A stretch of 64,000 nucleotides of DNA, taken from positions 1 through 64,000 of the forward strand of contig JBEKHN010000004.1 in the NCBI GenBank assembly GCA_050012255.1, written 5' to 3'. Of this stretch, positions 23,601 through 30,221 are shown one piece after another. This stretch comes from Candidatus Bathyarchaeia archaeon. Lineage in GTDB: Archaea > Thermoproteota > Bathyarchaeia > Bathyarchaeales > Bathycorpusculaceae. Below the pieces are notes generated by a model that worked only from the letters and a program-made list of their open reading frames with translations, was not told the origin of the DNA and did no database searches. A program made the position numbers and the translations under genes. The first letter of the stretch is position 1. Each line of letters opens with the position of its first letter.

Positions 23601-24650
23601 TTATCGGCCCTCATCGAGCTTCTTTCTTATGTTGTTATAAACGTCTAGGGCTGACTTTTCACTCTTGACATTTTTTATTAACATCCGTCCCCCGTTGAAC
23701 AGAGTGATTTCAAAGGTTCTGTAATTGAATATTATTGCAAGTTTGGACTTTATTCGCACTTTGAAATGCTGCTTGATGAGCTGATAGGCTTCGCTGAGGC
23801 CCATCTTCAACGGTTCTTCAGGGTTTATGTTCGCCGTGTCTCTTCCACATAGCCAAGCAAGTTTTTCCTTCCTTTTTGGGATGCCGACGTTGCGCTGGCA
23901 TGCTGGGCAGCCGTCTCTTTTGAAAATGTCTATCGTAGTGAAGTACATGTCGGCGAAGTCGCAGATCATCAGTTTACCCTTAAGCGGCGAGCCTATGCCT
24001 GTCAAAACCTTTATCGTTTCCATGGCTTGCATCGTGCCAATTATGCCAGCCGTGGCGCCGAGTACGCCTCTCAGGTCGCACGTCAGCAAAAAGTCATCCT
24101 TGACATCTGGCAAGATGCACTCCAAGCATGGGGTTTTAGGTACAGCGAAGACTGAAAGGTTGCCTTCAATTCCTATGGCCGCCCCAAAGACATACGGAAT
24201 CGCAAGCTTTGCGCATGCGCGGTTGACCAGGTAGCGTGTGCGCATATTGTCCAAACCGTCAACGACGCAGTCCATACCAGCTAGGAGCTTTTCAACATTG
24301 TTGACGTTCAGATTCTCTGAGACAGGCTCGACTTTCACGAGCGGATTCATCTTGGACAGTCTTTTGGCTGAGACCTCAGCCTTCGGATAATGCAGATCTT
24401 CCAGGCCGTAAAGGATCTGCCTATGCAAGTTAGCCAACTCAACCGTATCCTGGTCTATCAGGCGCAGGTAGCCGACCCCGGCGAGCCCCAGATAAAGTGA
24501 TGAAACTGTTCCCAAGCCGCCTAGTCCAACCACAGCTACCTTTGACTGGGCAAGTTTTCTTTGCCCCTTTTTCCCGAGCTCCTTCAACACGGTTTGGCGA
24601 CTGTAGTACTCGTCGAATGAGGGAAGCTTGCTCGTTCTAGGCATGTACAC
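23601..24650 (-). CDS. HesA/MoeB/ThiF family E1-like adenylyltransferase
   Basis: YSRQ, VGLGGLG, DQDTVELANLHRQ, DGLDN..TR, PCLEC, CPAC. Confidence 0.9.
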   Translation of the reverse strand: MYMPRTSKLPSFDEYYSRQTVLKELGKKGQRKLAQSKVAVVGLGGLGTVSSLYLGLAGVGYLRLIDQDTVELANLHRQILYGLEDLHYPKAEVSAKRLSKMNPLVKVEPVSENLNVNNVEKLLAGMDCVVDGLDNMRTRYLVNRACAKLAIPYVFGAAIGIEGNLSVFAVPKTPCLECILPDVKDDFLLTCDLRGVLGATAGIIGTMQAMETIKVLTGIGSPLKGKLMICDFADMYFTTIDIFKRDGCPACQRNVGIPKRKEKLAWLCGRDTANINPEEPLKMGLSEAYQLIKQHFKVRIKSKLAIIFNYRTFEITLFNGGRMLIKNVKSEKSALDVYNNIRKKLDEGR

Positions 24651-24672
24651 ACGTCACTTATCTATTCTGCTG

Positions 24673-26367
24673 TCAATCGGTTGTATATCTGCCTTTTTTC
24701 TGGAACTGACGCTCGTAGATTTGCCTGACCCGTTGAATGGTGTCCGCTTCCTCCGGTGCTTTGTCTTCTCTGATACGCGTAATCCTCGCGAACCGTAGAG
24801 CCATTTGGCATTCATATTTTGGGCTTCTCTGAATTTCGTTGTATGCGACTTCAACAACTATTGTCGGAACCACGCTCACGCTTCTGGGTGAGGGCTTTAT
24901 CGTCAGTTCTTTGAGCCGCTTTGTCATTCCGATGATTTCGGCGTCTGTCAACCCTTTGAAAGTCTTACCCACCGTGAGGAATTTGCCAGTGTCAGCATCA
25001 CGTGCCGCCAAGTAATAGTCTGAAAGCCACCCGTGCCTGCGCCCATAGCCGTACTCAGCCGCCACTATAACAAGGTCTAAGGGTTCGAGGATTGGCTTTA
25101 TTTTTAGCCAACGTTTTCCGCGGATTCCAGGCGTGTACGGGCTGTCAAGCCTCTTGGCCATCAAACCCTCATGCCCCGCGTCCATGGCCTGTTTCAAGAA
25201 CTGCTCCGCCTCTCGAACATCGTTCGCTATCAGCTGCGAAGTCAAAGGTATTCCGCCAGCGTTTGCCACAAGTACTTGCCTCCGTTGGACGTATGACGTG
25301 GAAATCAGGTTTTGCCCGTTGAGATACAAGACATCGAAAAGGTAAAGCCTCAGAGGAATTCTTTCGGCCGCGCCCGCTATTCCATGAACTCTTCTGAACC
25401 TCCGCATCAGATGCTGGAAAGGAATTGGGTAACCCTGACCGTCGACGGCCACAACCTCGCCTTCCAAGATTCCTTCCTCTGCTTTCAAGTTCCTTCTTGC
25501 CAAGTCCACTATCTCTGGTAAGCTGTCCGTCACGTCTGTTAGTCTGCGGCTGAAGATCTTGATGTCCTCGCCTGACTTGTGAATTTGAACCCTAGCACCG
25601 TCATACTTGTACTCAAACGCCGTCTTGCCATCATGCTCTTCCAACGCCTGCGCCACGCCGTCAGCCATCTGGGCCAGCATAGGGCCTACCGGCCTGAAAA
25701 CCTTGAAACCTATCTTGAACAGCCCTAGCTTACCCTCACTCTTAGCAATGGACGCCACCTCTCCGATGTCGCCCGTGATCATGCTTGCCTCTTGAACGTC
25801 TCGCAGCGGAACTTGAAAAGCCTTAGAAACTGCTTGTTCCATCAACCCTTCGTGAAAACCGGTGCGCATCTCACCGATGAAGATCTTGACCACATACTTG
25901 GCCTCAACCGGCGAGGCTTGACTCAGAAGTGCTTCAATCAGGCGTTCTTTTTTCTCTCTTGAGCCTGACCCGGAAGTTTCTGCTATACTTTGCAGGTTGC
26001 GCCTGACCTCAGTTATCGTTAAGGGTCTTTGAAAAAGCGCGATCTGTTTTCTAACCCTGCTGTTCTCAAAAATCGTCTTGGTGGCCGCGCCGATGTCGCC
26101 CGTTTTGCTGAAGACTTCTGTGAAGACGCTCCACTCAACGCCCGTGATGCGCTTTATGATTTCGCTAAGAGTAGCCCAGCTCACTTCGAGAGTTCGCTGA
26201 TCCCACCTTGGAAAAGGCCTCCCAAGAATCATGGAAACCGCGGGTTCTGTCTCGTCAGACTCTAAGTTCTGCAAGAAACTTGTTCCAAGGTCTACCATCA
26301 AGAGACGTTTGGTCGTCGCCTCCAGTTTTTCCCCTAATTCTGCAAGAGCCTTGAAAGGAGTCGGCAT
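24673..26367 (-). CDS. lig: ATP-dependent DNA ligase
   Basis: EYKYDGARVQIH, EGEVV, FDVLY, EGLMAK, WLKIK, ALRFARITRIREDK. Confidence 0.95.
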   Translation of the reverse strand: MPTPFKALAELGEKLEATTKRLLMVDLGTSFLQNLESDETEPAVSMILGRPFPRWDQRTLEVSWATLSEIIKRITGVEWSVFTEVFSKTGDIGAATKTIFENSRVRKQIALFQRPLTITEVRRNLQSIAETSGSGSREKKERLIEALLSQASPVEAKYVVKIFIGEMRTGFHEGLMEQAVSKAFQVPLRDVQEASMITGDIGEVASIAKSEGKLGLFKIGFKVFRPVGPMLAQMADGVAQALEEHDGKTAFEYKYDGARVQIHKSGEDIKIFSRRLTDVTDSLPEIVDLARRNLKAEEGILEGEVVAVDGQGYPIPFQHLMRRFRRVHGIAGAAERIPLRLYLFDVLYLNGQNLISTSYVQRRQVLVANAGGIPLTSQLIANDVREAEQFLKQAMDAGHEGLMAKRLDSPYTPGIRGKRWLKIKPILEPLDLVIVAAEYGYGRRHGWLSDYYLAARDADTGKFLTVGKTFKGLTDAEIIGMTKRLKELTIKPSPRSVSVVPTIVVEVAYNEIQRSPKYECQMALRFARITRIREDKAPEEADTIQRVRQIYERQFQKKGRYTTD

Positions 26368-26477
26368 AGTCGTTGACCTTTAAAACATGGTCAGCTTCTC
26401 ATTTGTCAGCTTAAAAAGATAAACGTTGTTTCAGGCCTGTTCAGTCCAAGAAGGAACAGCACAATGTTGACGATGAT

Positions 26478-26867
26478 TTAGAATGTGGCCTCCAGTTTCT
26501 TCTTCACTTCTTGAATCTTCTTGTCTAATTCCTTGACCTTTGCCTTCTTGCGTAAGGCCTTGTAACCGTCTCTCTCGTACTCCAAGGCGCTGACTCCGAA
26601 CCGGTCAAACCCCTTCTGGAAGGACAGTTCTGCCGACTTCGCAAAATGTTCAACCGCCTTCTCATATTCTTTCAGTGCGTAGGCACACTCGCCGGCCTTG
26701 TAGTACATCTCTGTCGAATAGAAAAAGTTCTGCACCTTATGATATAATTCCGCCGTTTTCAAGAAGATTTCTTCGGCCTCCTTATATTTGCCTGTCTCGA
26801 AAAGAGTGATTGCTTCTCTATGCATTCTCACGGGGTCATCTTTCACTTCTTGACTCATGACCGTCAA
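26478..26867 (-). CDS. TPR-like helical hypothetical protein
   Basis: Alpha-helical repeats: YKEAEEIFLKTAEL, YKAGECAYALKEYEKAVEHF. Confidence 0.7.
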   Translation of the reverse strand: MTVMSQEVKDDPVRMHREAITLFETGKYKEAEEIFLKTAELYHKVQNFFYSTEMYYKAGECAYALKEYEKAVEHFAKSAELSFQKGFDRFGVSALEYERDGYKALRKKAKVKELDKKIQEVKKKLEATF

Positions 26868-26989
26868 CTCACAACTCGCTACCTATCATTGCTGGACTCA
26901 CATTTAGGTTTTCCCATCTCACCGCCCGGTTGATTGTAAACATTAAAAAGGTCCACTGGAAGATCAATTGTTGACATTGATATAGCAGA

Positions 26990-28399
26990 GTGGAACCGAT
27001 GATTCTCAGATGCCTCCAATGCAACTCAGAATTTCAACTTTACCCGCCGAAAAACAGGTGCGACAGATGCGGAGGAACCCTAGAATACGAGATCAGCTTT
27101 CCCGAGAACCTTAGAACAAGATTCTCTAAACATCCAGGTTTTTGGAGATACAGACCCCTACTGCCGCCAGTAAAGAACATGATAAGTCTAGGCGAAGGCG
27201 AAACACCACTACGTAAGGCCGAAAGACTTGCAAGAAGCATTAAACTGAAAGAACTGTATTTGAAGGACGAAACGAGAAACCCAACAAACTCGTACAGAGA
27301 CCGCGCCGCCGCTCTTCTAACATCGAACGCCATGGATCTTAAGTACGAAACCATACTCTGCGCAACAAGCGGAAACCTAGGCGCTTCTTTGGCGGCCTAT
27401 TCTGCGAAAGCCGGGTCGACGTGCCACGTGATCGTGCCGAAGATGGTCGATGTTGGAAAAATGGCTCAAATGCTTGCCTATGACGCCTTCATCGAAGAAT
27501 TCGGCCAAACTGTCGACAAATCTATACGCAGAGCCAGAGCCTTGGAGAAAGAGATGGGCTGGTACCAAGCGACAGCAGAGTTAAACCCTCTCGTCATTGA
27601 GGCCCAGAAAACAATCTCGTTGGAAGTGCGTGAACAGCTTGGCGTTCCAGAATGGCTCATAGTCTCGATGGGCGGCGGTGGAACAATCTACTCAATCTGG
27701 AAAGGGTTCAAAGAGCTTGAACAACTCGGACTCACAGATTCACTGCCAAAAATGGTTGGCGTCCAGTCAGAAGGATGCGCACCAATAGTTAGGGCCTGGA
27801 AAGAAGGCGCGCATGAGTTTGCGAAGACTCTACACCCCATTACGCATGCGCTTGCGGTATTGGTGGCCGAGCCGTTGCAGGGGGAATTAGCAATGAAGGC
27901 GATTGAAGAATCAAACGGCTTAGCCATCACAGTCTCTGACTCGGAAATTTTTGCAGCAGAGCTTCAAATAGCCAAGCTTGAAGGCATGTTTGCTGAACCA
28001 GCAAGTTCAGCAGCGATCGCGGCCCTTAAGAAATTGATTCAAGATCGAAGGATTGACCAGAACGAAAGTGTCGTTTGCTTAATCACTGGAAGCGGACTCA
28101 AAGCCACAGACGTGCTGCAAGCGTTAACCAAGAAACAAAAAACGGTCGTTCTTGGCCTGGAACTGAGCACAAAAGAGAAAATACTTCGTATCATAAGCAA
28201 GAAAGACACTTACGGGTACGACTTGTGGAAGAAACTCGGGAGAACAATGACGCGAGCGGCCGTTTATCAACACTTAAACGAGCTGTCAGAGAAAGCGCTA
28301 ATCGTTGGCTGCGAGAAGACCGGAAAAAGATTCTTTAGAATAACGGAACGCGGAAAGAAAGCGCTATCAGCCATCGACGACTTGAAACTTTTGATGTGA
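26990..28399 (+). CDS. Threonine-synthase-like (PLP fold II) protein with catalytic Lys replaced by Arg, fused to C-terminal PadR-like wHTH
   Basis: N-terminal CxxC/CxxC, LGEGETPL, KDETRNPTNSYRDR, ATSGNLGAS, EPASSAA, LITGSGLK; then TKEKILRII...YGYDLWKKL...RAAVYQHLNEL...FFRITERG. Confidence 0.85.
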   Translation: MEPMILRCLQCNSEFQLYPPKNRCDRCGGTLEYEISFPENLRTRFSKHPGFWRYRPLLPPVKNMISLGEGETPLRKAERLARSIKLKELYLKDETRNPTNSYRDRAAALLTSNAMDLKYETILCATSGNLGASLAAYSAKAGSTCHVIVPKMVDVGKMAQMLAYDAFIEEFGQTVDKSIRRARALEKEMGWYQATAELNPLVIEAQKTISLEVREQLGVPEWLIVSMGGGGTIYSIWKGFKELEQLGLTDSLPKMVGVQSEGCAPIVRAWKEGAHEFAKTLHPITHALAVLVAEPLQGELAMKAIEESNGLAITVSDSEIFAAELQIAKLEGMFAEPASSAAIAALKKLIQDRRIDQNESVVCLITGSGLKATDVLQALTKKQKTVVLGLELSTKEKILRIISKKDTYGYDLWKKLGRTMTRAAVYQHLNELSEKALIVGCEKTGKRFFRITERGKKALSAIDDLKLLM

Positions 28400-28537
28400 C
28401 CTTTGCTATCAGTCATGCTGTTTTACTGGTTATTCCTAGTATGGTCAACCATTTTTCCATCTTTATTTTTGTCAGTTTTTGATGGTTATTCTGGTTAATT
28501 GACGTTAGCGCGCGATCCTTTTTCATCGATGTTAAAA

Positions 28538-28575
28538 TTTATAAACGCTCATTCACTATTATAGTTACAACTATA
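28538..28575 (+). promoter_or_regulatory. TATA box (TTTATAAA) followed by palindrome TATAGTT-AC-AACTATA
   Basis: TATA at 28538-28545; perfect 7-bp inverted repeat at 28560-28575 upstream of the ECF S gene. Confidence 0.65.
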
Positions 28576-28619
28576 CTAAGCCTACAATCGACCGCGAGAA
28601 AACATGGAGTACGATCCAA

Positions 28620-29180
28620 ATGGAAAGCAGATTCACTATAATAACTGCCGCGCTGATGGGAGTCATGGCTGCACTGGTGGCCGTGACAACCTTTGCCGTA
28701 CAAATCTACATCCCAGCAACAAAGGGATATCTAAACTTCGGCGATATCATGATCTTTGTAAGCGCGCTCACCTTTGGCCCCGTAGTCGGGGGCTTTGCTG
28801 GTGGGGTCGGATCGGCCATATCAGACGTGCTTGGAGGCTATGCCTATTTCGCCCCATCTACCTTGGTGGTAAAAGGCGTAGAAGGCTTCATTGCAGGATT
28901 AATCGCCAATAGAATCAGCTATCGACGAGACGTTCTTGCCGTGATCATTGCAGGCGCAGAAATGATAACTGGTTACTTCCTAGCCGAATTCTTCCCGCTT
29001 CAAGAAGGATGGGCAGCGTTAGGCGAAGTGCCAGCAAACATACTGCAGATAGTAGTTGGAGGACTCGTTGGCTTACCAATAGCCTTAATCATCCGCAGGA
29101 GACTCCCAGAAATCCTGAAGCCGACAAAGGTAAATGACACTGACGAGATAAGGAAGCCTTTGCCACAGCTTAAAAGCTAA
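28620..29180 (+). CDS. ECF transporter S component (HmpT/PdxU2-like)
   Basis: IPATKGYLNFGD, GGVGSAISD, GYAYFAPSTLVVKG.EG, EVPANILQ; about six TM helices. Confidence 0.85.
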   Translation: MESRFTIITAALMGVMAALVAVTTFAVQIYIPATKGYLNFGDIMIFVSALTFGPVVGGFAGGVGSAISDVLGGYAYFAPSTLVVKGVEGFIAGLIANRISYRRDVLAVIIAGAEMITGYFLAEFFPLQEGWAALGEVPANILQIVVGGLVGLPIALIIRRRLPEILKPTKVNDTDEIRKPLPQLKS

Positions 29181-29210: not shown

Positions 29211-30221
29211 ATGGCATTGCCACTAGGAAAGATACCTGTTGACCTCTTGAAAGAGGTCATATTCAAGAATCTAGGTGTTCACCGTGATGAGGTTGCGCTG
29301 GGCCCTGCGGCAGGAATTGATGGCGCTGTGATAAACGTTGGAAGTAAATCGCTCGTAGTATCTATGGATCCGATCACAGGAGCCTTGGAGAGAATCGGCT
29401 GGCTTGCAGTCAACGTTAACGCAAACGATGTCTCCACGTTTGGTGTCGAGCCAGCCTTCTTCTTGTCGTGTATTTTGCTCCCAGAAAAGGCGGATAGAAA
29501 GACCGTTGAGATTATCAGCTCACAGATGGACAAGGCTGCGAAGGGTTTGGGAATGGCTATCGTCGGAGGACATTGCGAATCTACTCCCGGACTGGTGAAC
29601 CCGATAGTTGTGGGTTGCGCTATGGGTATGGCAGAGAAGGGAAATTACGTGACGGCAGCTGGAGCCAAAGCAGGAGATAAAATTATGATAACCAAAACTG
29701 CGGGCATAGAAGGCACTGCCATTCTGGCGTCGGACAGGGAGGAAAAGCTGAGGAAAACCGTCAGGTCCTCAACGTTGAAGAGTGCTAAGGGATTCTTCAG
29801 CATGATAAGCGTGGCGAAAGAGGCGGCGATAGCCTTCAAGACAGGCGGTGTTCACGCTATGCATGACCCGACAGAAGGCGGAATAGCTGGGGGAATACAC
29901 GAGGTTGCAGACGCATCAAACCTAGGCTTCAGAATCTTGGAGGACAGAATTCCAGTGGCCGAAGAGACCTCAGAGATATGTAAGGCATTTGAGATTGACC
30001 CGCTTTACTTGATTGCTTCAGGAAGCATGCTGATAGCAGCCAGAAAAGATGTCGCAGATGATATTGAGAAAAACCTAATCAAAAGCGGAATCAGCGCAAG
30101 TGTCGTTGGCGAATTCTTGCCGTCTTCAGAAAACCGAATTGTAAAACGAAAAAATGGTTTTGAAACAGAACTGGCAAGGCCCACTTGCGACCATCTGTGG
30201 GTTGCTCTTGCAAAGAAGTAA
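29211..30221 (+). CDS. AIR synthase-related (HypE/ThiL/PurM fold) protein
   Basis: LPLGKIP, SMDPITGA, NANDV, VGGHCE, MHDPTEGG, LIASGSML, DHLW. Confidence 0.85.
   Translation: MALPLGKIPVDLLKEVIFKNLGVHRDEVALGPAAGIDGAVINVGSKSLVVSMDPITGALERIGWLAVNVNANDVSTFGVEPAFFLSCILLPEKADRKTVEIISSQMDKAAKGLGMAIVGGHCESTPGLVNPIVVGCAMGMAEKGNYVTAAGAKAGDKIMITKTAGIEGTAILASDREEKLRKTVRSSTLKSAKGFFSMISVAKEAAIAFKTGGVHAMHDPTEGGIAGGIHEVADASNLGFRILEDRIPVAEETSEICKAFEIDPLYLIASGSMLIAARKDVADDIEKNLIKSGISASVVGEFLPSSENRIVKRKNGFETELARPTCDHLWVALAKK

Follow-up and report, generated by a model that had tools for sequence, protein, structure and literature searches.

In Bacteria, the MocR/PdxR regulators reuse the fold of a pyridoxal 5'-phosphate (PLP)-dependent enzyme as a sensor and join it to a winged helix-turn-helix (wHTH) domain in a one-component protein. 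In Archaea, the thiamine regulator ThiR combines an inactivated biosynthetic-enzyme fold, ThiN, with a DNA-binding domain, and we know of no regulator of vitamin B6 metabolism among them. Here we describe a gene from the window, that is, the whole stretch of 64,000 nucleotides (nt) that was analyzed, positions 1 to 64,000 of contig JBEKHN010000004.1 in assembly GCA_050012255.1 of a Candidatus Bathyarchaeia archaeon. The gene encodes a threonine synthase (ThrC) fold with a PadR-like wHTH fused to its C terminus, and its best reading is an enzyme-fold vitamin sensor-regulator that was invented independently in Archaea, an analogue of PdxR and not a homologue. We put at roughly 70% the probability that the protein would act as an operator-bound, PLP- or B6-responsive one-component regulator (a repressor) of vitamin B6 homeostasis. 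The computations established its architecture, the replacement of the cofactor-binding lysine by arginine and the conservation of that change, the pairing with a transporter gene, a palindrome with genome-wide specificity, and the co-occurrence of that palindrome with the fusion.

Several described systems resemble parts of this one. ThiR deals with another vitamin through another fold and another DNA-binding domain. The sensor of MocR/PdxR is a fold-type I aminotransferase that has its PLP lysine, whereas the window protein has the fold-type II fold of ThrC with the lysine replaced; the wHTH of MocR/PdxR is of the GntR type and N-terminal, whereas ours is PadR-like and C-terminal, and neither domain is homologous. 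Unlike in MocR/PdxR, the Schiff-base lysine is lost in most members of the ThrC-wHTH family. PadR-family proteins are small, stand-alone regulators with an N-terminal wHTH. The window protein shares with them a wHTH that scores above the PF03551 cut-off, a terminal helix after it, and a palindromic putative target, but it is not a standard PadR protein, since its wHTH occupies the C-terminal end (roughly 75 residues) of a 469-residue fusion whose dimerization is predicted to run through the enzyme-like domain. With archaeal-type ThrCs it has in common the fold, the zinc-ribbon N terminus, and most of the conserved alignment columns; it differs in the replaced catalytic lysine, the added wHTH, a score below the cut-off of its best-fitting family model, and the presence of a true thrC elsewhere in the genome. 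According to PMC5320631, the bacterial PdxR regulon comprises pdxST, pdxK, and pdxU, and Archaea have no MocR regulators. The regulon found here, with pdxS-pdxT and a PdxU-family transporter, is like that of PdxR (PMC5320631) in function, which does not amount to membership. A literature search found no description of a ThrC-wHTH fusion or of an archaeal B6 regulator, and the supplementary tables of PMC5320631 and PMC9997740 might list such proteins.

The fusion protein and its replaced lysine

The gene and the parts of its product lie as follows.

26990 to 28399, + strand: ThrC-wHTH gene, 469 amino acids (aa) from the GTG at 26990 and 466 aa from the probable ATG at 26999
27011 to 27070, + strand: N-terminal zinc ribbon, CxxC...CxxC, residues 8 to 27, from the sequence motif
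27182 to 28090, + strand: fold-type II PLP-enzyme (ThrC) domain, residues 65 to 367, the proposed sensor, from Pfam (PALP, 2e-73), AlphaFold2, and Foldseek
27296 to 27298, + strand: codon AGA of Arg103, replacing the PLP Schiff-base lysine, from the sequence and alignment
28130 to 28159, + strand: flexible linker, residues 381 to 390, with a predicted local distance difference test (pLDDT) value below 50 in AlphaFold2
28169 to 28396, + strand: PadR-like wHTH and terminal helix, residues 394 to 469, from Pfam PF03551 and the AlphaFold2 model

A preliminary description of this DNA, made from the letters alone, had reported an intact reading frame with a PadR-like wHTH appended to a ThrC homologue, and both points were confirmed. 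The frame is open throughout, and its true start is probably the ATG at 26999, because an identical database protein has 466 aa. The PadR domain PF03551 matched residues 398 to 460 (1.8e-8; 34.7 bits against a gathering score of 27), the helices and strands of the wHTH are visible in the AlphaFold2 model, and a Pfam scan of the protein gave no GntR match. Zinc-ribbon Pfam matches to the N terminus were weak, and this element is also found in unfused archaeal-type ThrCs. The AlphaFold2 model, built from an 80-row alignment, had a mean pLDDT of 93.4 and a predicted template modeling (TM) score of 0.81, and only linker residues 381 to 390 fell below a pLDDT of 50. The best Foldseek matches were all ThrC structures (top match 6nmx_B, E value 1.2e-31; TM scores of about 0.85 to 0.89 on the target), and none of the matches was a solved chain that spans both the ThrC and the wHTH domains. 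As a homodimer, the protein scored 0.79 against 0.10 for the best control, with at least 86% of contacts shared between runs and a partner pLDDT of at least 85; the mark applied let through 20 of 30 solved pairs and 1 of 23 single chains. The predicted interface is located in the ThrC domain and not in the PadR helix, and the high score may just reflect likeness to solved ThrC dimers.

The same description had claimed that the PLP Schiff-base lysine is an arginine and that other ThrC motifs are kept, which held in structure-anchored alignments. Arg103, within the sequence NPTNSYRDR (residues 97 to 105), aligned in HMMER with the Schiff-base lysine of the solved threonine synthases 2zsj, 2d1f, and 6cgq (Lys69 of 2d1f, counting along the alignment), and ATSGN (residues 125 to 129), MGGGGT (227 to 232), and TGSGLK (366 to 371) were all in place. 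Every one of 121 aligned sequences (the query and its 120 best hits, at least 70% identical and from Bathyarchaeia where named) has arginine in the column, and thus the substitution is neither chance nor an assembly error. When contigs of four DNA runs were compared with the region, no change at 27296 to 27298 was among the 40 differences listed, out of a set that contained 188 others; this comparison adds little, and one run may itself be the source of the window DNA.

Catalysis by fold-type II enzymes requires the Schiff-base lysine. Judged from its sequence, the window protein is probably not a threonine synthase, since it lacks the lysine of the NPTxSFKDR motif, a defining feature of ThrC. 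A separate canonical thrC, raised in the preliminary description, exists elsewhere in the genome (2.35 Mb, 98.5% complete, 5.0% contaminated); it encodes an unfused, lysine-bearing protein of 377 aa with the motif NPTGSFKDRG, which scored 442.9 bits against a cut-off of 301 for NF005035. The window protein scored above the cut-off of TIGR00260 (thrC; 210.1 against 167.1) and below that of its best-fitting model, NF004170 (375.8 against 421). The match to NF004170 (PRK05638) covers the whole protein, including the wHTH tail (model positions 2 to 440 of 442), and therefore the fusion has already been filed as "threonine synthase," the name that NCBI and JGI records give to the family. Altered residues at the substrate-phosphate site of ThrC were dropped as an argument, because unfused archaeal-type ThrCs, including the thrC of this genome, differ there too.

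Across the family, the lysine column is variable. An exhaustive search yielded 150 best cluster representatives, of which 74 with the wHTH tail and 74 without it cover the column and 2 do not. Lysine was absent from 70 of the 74 tailed representatives, being replaced by Leu (19), Ile (15), Arg (14), Val (6), Thr (5), Met (4), Phe (3), or Ser, Asn, Tyr, and Ala (1 each), and present in the other 4. Among the untailed representatives, 71 of 74 had lysine, and the exceptions were two fragments and one 519-aa variant. We computed a tree of 233 sequences from ThrC-domain columns only, with the lysine column masked and with sequences shorter than 340 aa or without the column dropped; its root is arbitrary and its sampling uneven. 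The fusions fell together in one pan-archaeal clade (150 leaves; support, 0.93). Arginine predominates in one half of it (87 leaves), which includes nested lysine clades of 9 Bathyarchaeia leaves and of 12 Promethearchaeota/Hermod/Hod leaves, and the other half (63 leaves) has a hydrophobic residue in the column; two 620-aa lysine proteins that had been flagged as tailed were placed among the unfused ThrCs. Parsimony on this tree favors two regains of lysine from arginine over six or more independent losses, and each regain needs one transition, from an AGR to an AAR codon. In a second sample, drawn from species-representative genomes, 77 of the fusions at 80 loci cover the column, with 45 Arg, 19 Lys, 12 Leu, Ile, Met, or Asn, and 1 Ser. 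The Lys-to-Arg change, whose conservation among homologues of the fusion the preliminary description had put forward as a check, holds throughout the close relatives and not across the wider family. Lysine loss does not define the family, and about a fifth of its members retain the residue.

The rest of the ThrC framework has been kept. From 70 unfused ThrCs, we took the 72 columns conserved at 80% or more, and in 65 of these over 60% of 73 fusions have the same residue; losses are confined to the lysine column (3%) and one glycine column (5%). Because 65 of the 72 columns are kept and the lysine column is lost, we read this pattern as a pocket under selection in which the covalent anchor is dispensable. 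Hosts of the fusion include Bathyarchaeia, the Jord-, Odin-, Hermod-, Hod-, and Thorarchaeota groups and Promethearchaeota, Thermococcus, Methanomicrobia, Nitrososphaerota, Terraquivivens, and Methanomethylicota.

A palindrome before the putative transporter gene

Downstream of the fusion, the window holds these features.

28538 to 28545, + strand: TATA-like box of the PF07155 promoter, inferred from its position relative to the palindrome and the ATG
28557 to 28578, no strand assigned: 22-bp palindromic candidate operator with two 10-bp arms, a 2-bp spacer, and one arm mismatch
28620 to 29180, + strand: membrane protein like the S-component of energy-coupling factor (ECF) transporters, of the PF07155 (PdxU/HmpT) family (Pfam, 3e-36), the proposed regulated transporter of a B6 vitamer
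29211 to 30221, + strand: PurM-superfamily "AIR synthase family" protein, starting 30 nt after the PF07155 gene

The PF07155 protein scored 125.4 bits against a gathering score of 26.7, and its sole clear solved relative is the S-component of L. brevis ECF-HmpT (4hzu_S; E value, 2.7e-13). It belongs to the same family, PF07155 or COG4720, as PdxU and PdxU2/HmpT, which PMC9997740 counts as two of only three characterized prokaryotic B6 transporters, B6 transport being described there as a major gap in the field. HmpT binds pyridoxamine (PMC4860826). A PF07155 gene adjoins the fusion in 59 of the 80 loci, and these 59 come from Bathyarchaeia, Asgard groups, Nitrososphaerota, and Terraquivivens. 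It lies downstream on the same strand in Bathyarchaeia, downstream and convergent in Asgard archaea, and upstream and divergent in Thorarchaeota, Nitrososphaerota, and Terraquivivens.

The palindrome in the window begins 11 nt past the TATA-like box and ends 41 nt before the ATG of the PF07155 gene. Given the usual spacing between TATA box and transcription start in archaeal promoters, it should cover the transcription start of that gene, which would be a repressor position. In about 30 Bathyarchaeia loci, the DNA that separates the fusion from the PF07155 gene contains a near-perfect inverted repeat with 10-bp arms and a 2-bp spacer, sometimes as two tandem copies, immediately past a TATA-like box. 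All 41 instances in loci L010 to L059 lie at PF07155 promoters or, in L015, at pdxS, and in the three loci where the PF07155 gene has been relocated (L020, L030, and L041), the repeat has been relocated with it. A weight matrix made from 37 instances found one site only in the 2.35-Mb genome of the window, at 35.3 bits, with the next best at 11.1 bits; the maxima in five random genomes were 13 to 19 bits, above this second-best value. Upstream of the regulator's own gene, no operator-like site was present. A perfect 6-7-6 inverted repeat at 26962 to 26980 is probably due to chance, and autoregulation through this operator was dropped, as there was no such site and this repeat was not conserved in 15 relatives.

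Operators of the same type recur before other genes of B6 metabolism. A sequence-only covariance model of 31 sites was run on 61 genomes of the order, 26 of which yielded a total of 29 distinct sites. Of these sites, 26 stand directly upstream of PF07155 genes, 2 upstream of pdxS-pdxT, and 1 upstream of pdxJ (genome G160; PF03740, 2.4e-95); no site stood before any other kind of gene, thiamine genes included. The pdxJ site, one of the pdxS-pdxT sites, and a site at a second PF07155 paralogue were new. We also scanned 28 loci from a search for pdxS in the class, of which 25 hold a pdxS gene, and found a strong operator directly before pdxS-pdxT in two genomes (29.3 and 22.5 bits), one from the same family and one from the same order as the window genome. 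Apart from the pdxS-pdxT locus of the window genome, 24 pdxS loci were scanned; 22 of them had no operator of the Bathyarchaeia type, and a few of these carry the other type of palindrome. Operators before pdxS-pdxT are present in L015, G082, G056, and G163; in L015, the operator follows the fusion and is followed by pdxS, pdxT, and a PurM-like gene.

The presence of the operator tracks that of the fusion. Among the genomes that the operator and protein scans have in common, which were cross-read by hand, all 13 with the fusion have the operator, whereas it is missing from all 15 with only an unfused ThrC or none, although 14 of these 15 still have a PF07155 gene. The contrast repeats inside families f1, f2, f3, and f5. 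Outside the Bathyarchaeia type, palindromes with clade-specific arms and the same architecture stand before PF07155 genes in Asgard archaea, Thorarchaeota, Nitrososphaerota, and Terraquivivens, and in Bathyarchaeia family f20 a palindrome lies between divergent pdxS-pdxT genes and a fusion of the hydrophobic type. In the Thermococcus, Methanomicrobia, and Jordarchaeia loci, a PF07155 neighbor and a nearby palindrome are both absent. In three of these genomes (two Thermococcus metagenome-assembled genomes [MAGs] and one Methanobacteriota MAG), in which PdxS is also absent, unlinked PF07155 genes are nevertheless preceded by such a palindrome, with some 10 to 45 nt between it and the ATG.

The distribution of B6 genes in the class fits a controlled uptake system. 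Among 151 Bathyarchaeia genomes, PdxS scored above the cut-off in 25 and PF07155 was present in 125, and families were largely complementary for the two: 13 of 14 versus 1 of 14 genomes in f11, 0 of 27 versus 25 of 27 in f18, and 1 of 15 versus 14 of 15 in f1. These counts suggest that most of the sampled Bathyarchaeia are B6 salvagers and that B6 auxotrophy is widespread, a lifestyle in which a regulated importer makes sense. The window genome has both the importer, with the operator before it, and pdxS-pdxT, which lack one, and neither PdxJ nor a PdxK/ThiD-family kinase (PF08543) was found in it above the cut-off.

From these comparisons, we infer that the fusion is the protein that binds the palindrome and that it binds a B6 ligand; the sign of the regulation and the substrate of the transporter are likewise deduced. 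Having lost the lysine, the ThrC fold would keep its PLP pocket and serve as a reversible, noncovalent sensor of PLP or of a closely related B6 vitamer, since without a Schiff base the ligand would exchange freely, as befits sensing. The protein would dimerize through the ThrC domain. At the C terminus of each subunit, a PadR-like wHTH tethered by a flexible linker (about 10 residues) would bind the 22-bp palindrome, and the occupancy of the pocket would set the position of the two tethered modules on it. In a B6-replete cell, the PF07155 promoter would be blocked and B6 uptake repressed; in relatives, operators of the same type before pdxS-pdxT or pdxJ would extend the control to synthesis. 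In the clades that bear lysine, the covalent form would serve too.

A wider claim is more tentative, and we rate it somewhat short of even odds: that the fusion is an ancient archaeal master regulator of B6, formed before the Asgard, Thermoproteota, and Euryarchaeota lines split, which would control PdxU-like uptake, pdxST, and pdxJ through one conserved palindrome, with lysine regained in two nested clades and with the PurM-like protein as a B6-salvage enzyme where PdxS and a PdxK-family kinase are absent. If this is true, nature offers matched covalent and noncovalent versions of one PLP sensor. A B6 regulator of this kind would add a second and independent example of a PLP-enzyme fold made into a transcription sensor, provide a testable triad of sensor, operator, and transporter across Bathyarchaeia, Asgard archaea, Thermococci, and Nitrososphaerota, serve as a marker for B6 auxotrophy and cross-feeding, and supply natural variants with and without the lysine for studying cofactor sensing. 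The annotation of the family as "threonine synthase" inflates predictions of threonine prototrophy.

Competing readings

Several observations weigh against a noncovalent B6 regulator or limit its reach. Lysine is retained in 19 of the 77 loci fusions and in 21 of the 150 clade leaves. The 19 lysine-keeping fusions do not differ from the lysine-less ones in transporter partner or in type of operator; "pseudo-enzyme," as the preliminary description had called the protein, fits only part of the family, and a form that binds PLP covalently evidently serves too. In the transporter, the residues reported to hold pyridoxamine in HmpT, Glu41 and His84 (PMC4860826), are Asp and Lys when counted along the alignment, and because they are not kept, the vitamer that the PF07155 protein would carry may not be pyridoxamine. 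In the class sample, cross-read by hand, 21 of 56 fused genes adjoin neither PF07155 nor pdxS, 5 of them at contig ends. The sites that trained the covariance model came partly from genomes that possibly recur in the scan, which makes the 29 of 29 sites not fully independent, and the related genomes behind the co-occurrence counts are not independent samples. The pdxS-pdxT genes of the window genome (C1:33259-34709) have no operator, and its regulon is therefore one promoter. The PF07155 family was reportedly first proposed to carry 4-amino-5-hydroxymethyl-2-methylpyrimidine (HMP), a thiamine precursor.

This last point bears on the alternative that survives best, which we nevertheless consider unlikely: that the fusion is the regulator of the same operator and responds to something other than B6, be it HMP or its phosphate (HMP-P), O-phosphohomoserine, threonine, or another amino acid or phospho-amino acid. 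HMP and HMP-P are similar in shape to pyridoxamine and PLP. The original prediction of HmpT as an HMP transporter, the changed pyridoxamine-contact residues, the canonical thrC that stands upstream of the fusion and divergent from it in eight Bathyarchaeia loci, and the retention of nearly the whole ThrC active-site framework, beyond the part that binds PLP, are all compatible with such a signal. Against it, operators stand before the dedicated B6 synthesis genes pdxS-pdxT and pdxJ, type-B members of the family are divergent partners of pdxS-pdxT, thiamine genes lie behind 0 of 29 sites, and the neighboring thrC genes have no operator. An HMP-P or amino acid ligand is structurally possible, but what the regulon contains points to B6. 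The preliminary description had pictured an inactive ThrC-fold sensor of PLP, a B6 vitamer, or a phospho-amino acid that controls DNA binding; the first part has gained comparative support from the conserved arginine, the separate thrC, the PdxU/HmpT-family partner, and the operators at B6 genes, and a phospho-amino acid ligand is disfavored because the divergent canonical thrC genes have no operator beside them.

A B6-responsive fusion acting at the palindrome is also preferable to a quite improbable second alternative, in which the palindrome is the site of another transcription factor and the ThrC-wHTH protein is unrelated to it, merely sharing the neighborhood of the transporter. The promoter of the regulator itself lacks the operator, and in some genomes the regulator is unlinked to PF07155, as would be expected of a bystander. 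Such a bystander does not account for the distribution of the operator, which followed the fusion and not the PF07155 gene, also within each of four families, for the pairing of fusion and PF07155 across phyla in three orientations, or for the three loci in which the operator moved along with the PF07155 gene. That the protein is still an enzyme, with threonine synthase or another fold-type II activity and the wHTH as an accessory, is very improbable, since its score above the TIGR00260 cut-off, its database name, and its many kept active-site columns are set against the arginine at the Schiff-base position (Leu, Ile, Val, Met, Thr, Phe, Asn, Ser, Tyr, or Ala elsewhere in the family), a score that falls short of the NF004170 cut-off, and the presence in the genome of a separate thrC with a score above that of its own equivalog model's cut-off.

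Partner genes and further observations

The PurM-like gene behind the PF07155 gene is probably cotranscribed with it. Its product, which is also HypE-like, scored below the hypE, thiL, and selD cut-offs. A gene of this kind accompanies PF07155 or pdxST in 26 of the 80 loci (for example, L015, L103, L049, L050, and L088), and in L103 it precedes pdxS-pdxT. We speculate that the protein is a candidate for an unrecognized B6-salvage enzyme. A role as a replacement for PdxK is likewise speculative: PF08543 is present in 28 of the 61 genomes of the order, with no clean complementarity to the PurM-like gene. The window genome has one gene for an ECF T-component (PF02361, C7:51047-51664, 123.5 bits), which does not imply a partnership with the PF07155 protein.

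In Thermococcus and Thermococci MAGs, other genes accompany the fusion. A ribose-5-phosphate isomerase A gene, by its Pfam match, lies just downstream of it in L074, and L080 and L087 have an open reading frame of equal length (227 aa) in the same place. Ribose 5-phosphate is a substrate of PdxS, and a search of the L074 and L087 genomes for PdxS found none. In eight Bathyarchaeia loci (L029, L030, L033 to L036, L038, and L054), a canonical, lysine-bearing thrC of about 410 to 427 aa stands divergently upstream of the fusion, with no operator between the two genes, and may be a trace of the duplication that produced the regulator.

Two genomes depart from the usual pattern. In G106 (C17:23835-24890), a homologue of the fusion is cut to a frame of 365 aa without the wHTH, in a genome without an operator or a PF07155 match, and this looks like a decayed system. 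The L015 record is labeled as a Limnocylindrales bacterium MAG and carries a ThrC-wHTH protein 66% identical to ours, an operator of the Bathyarchaeia type, and pdxST; its bacterial label probably stems from an error in binning. Upstream of the regulator on the opposite strand (23601 to 26867, - strand), the window has genes for a ThiF/MoeB-type adenylyltransferase, an ATP-dependent DNA ligase, and a small tetratricopeptide repeat protein, which are syntenic in the closest relatives only and lie outside the system. Finally, a short metagenome contig from run X2 (198 nt, 88% likeness) joins window position 27049 to 28539 with 19 other letters between them; it would skip most of the regulator gene and may come from another organism.

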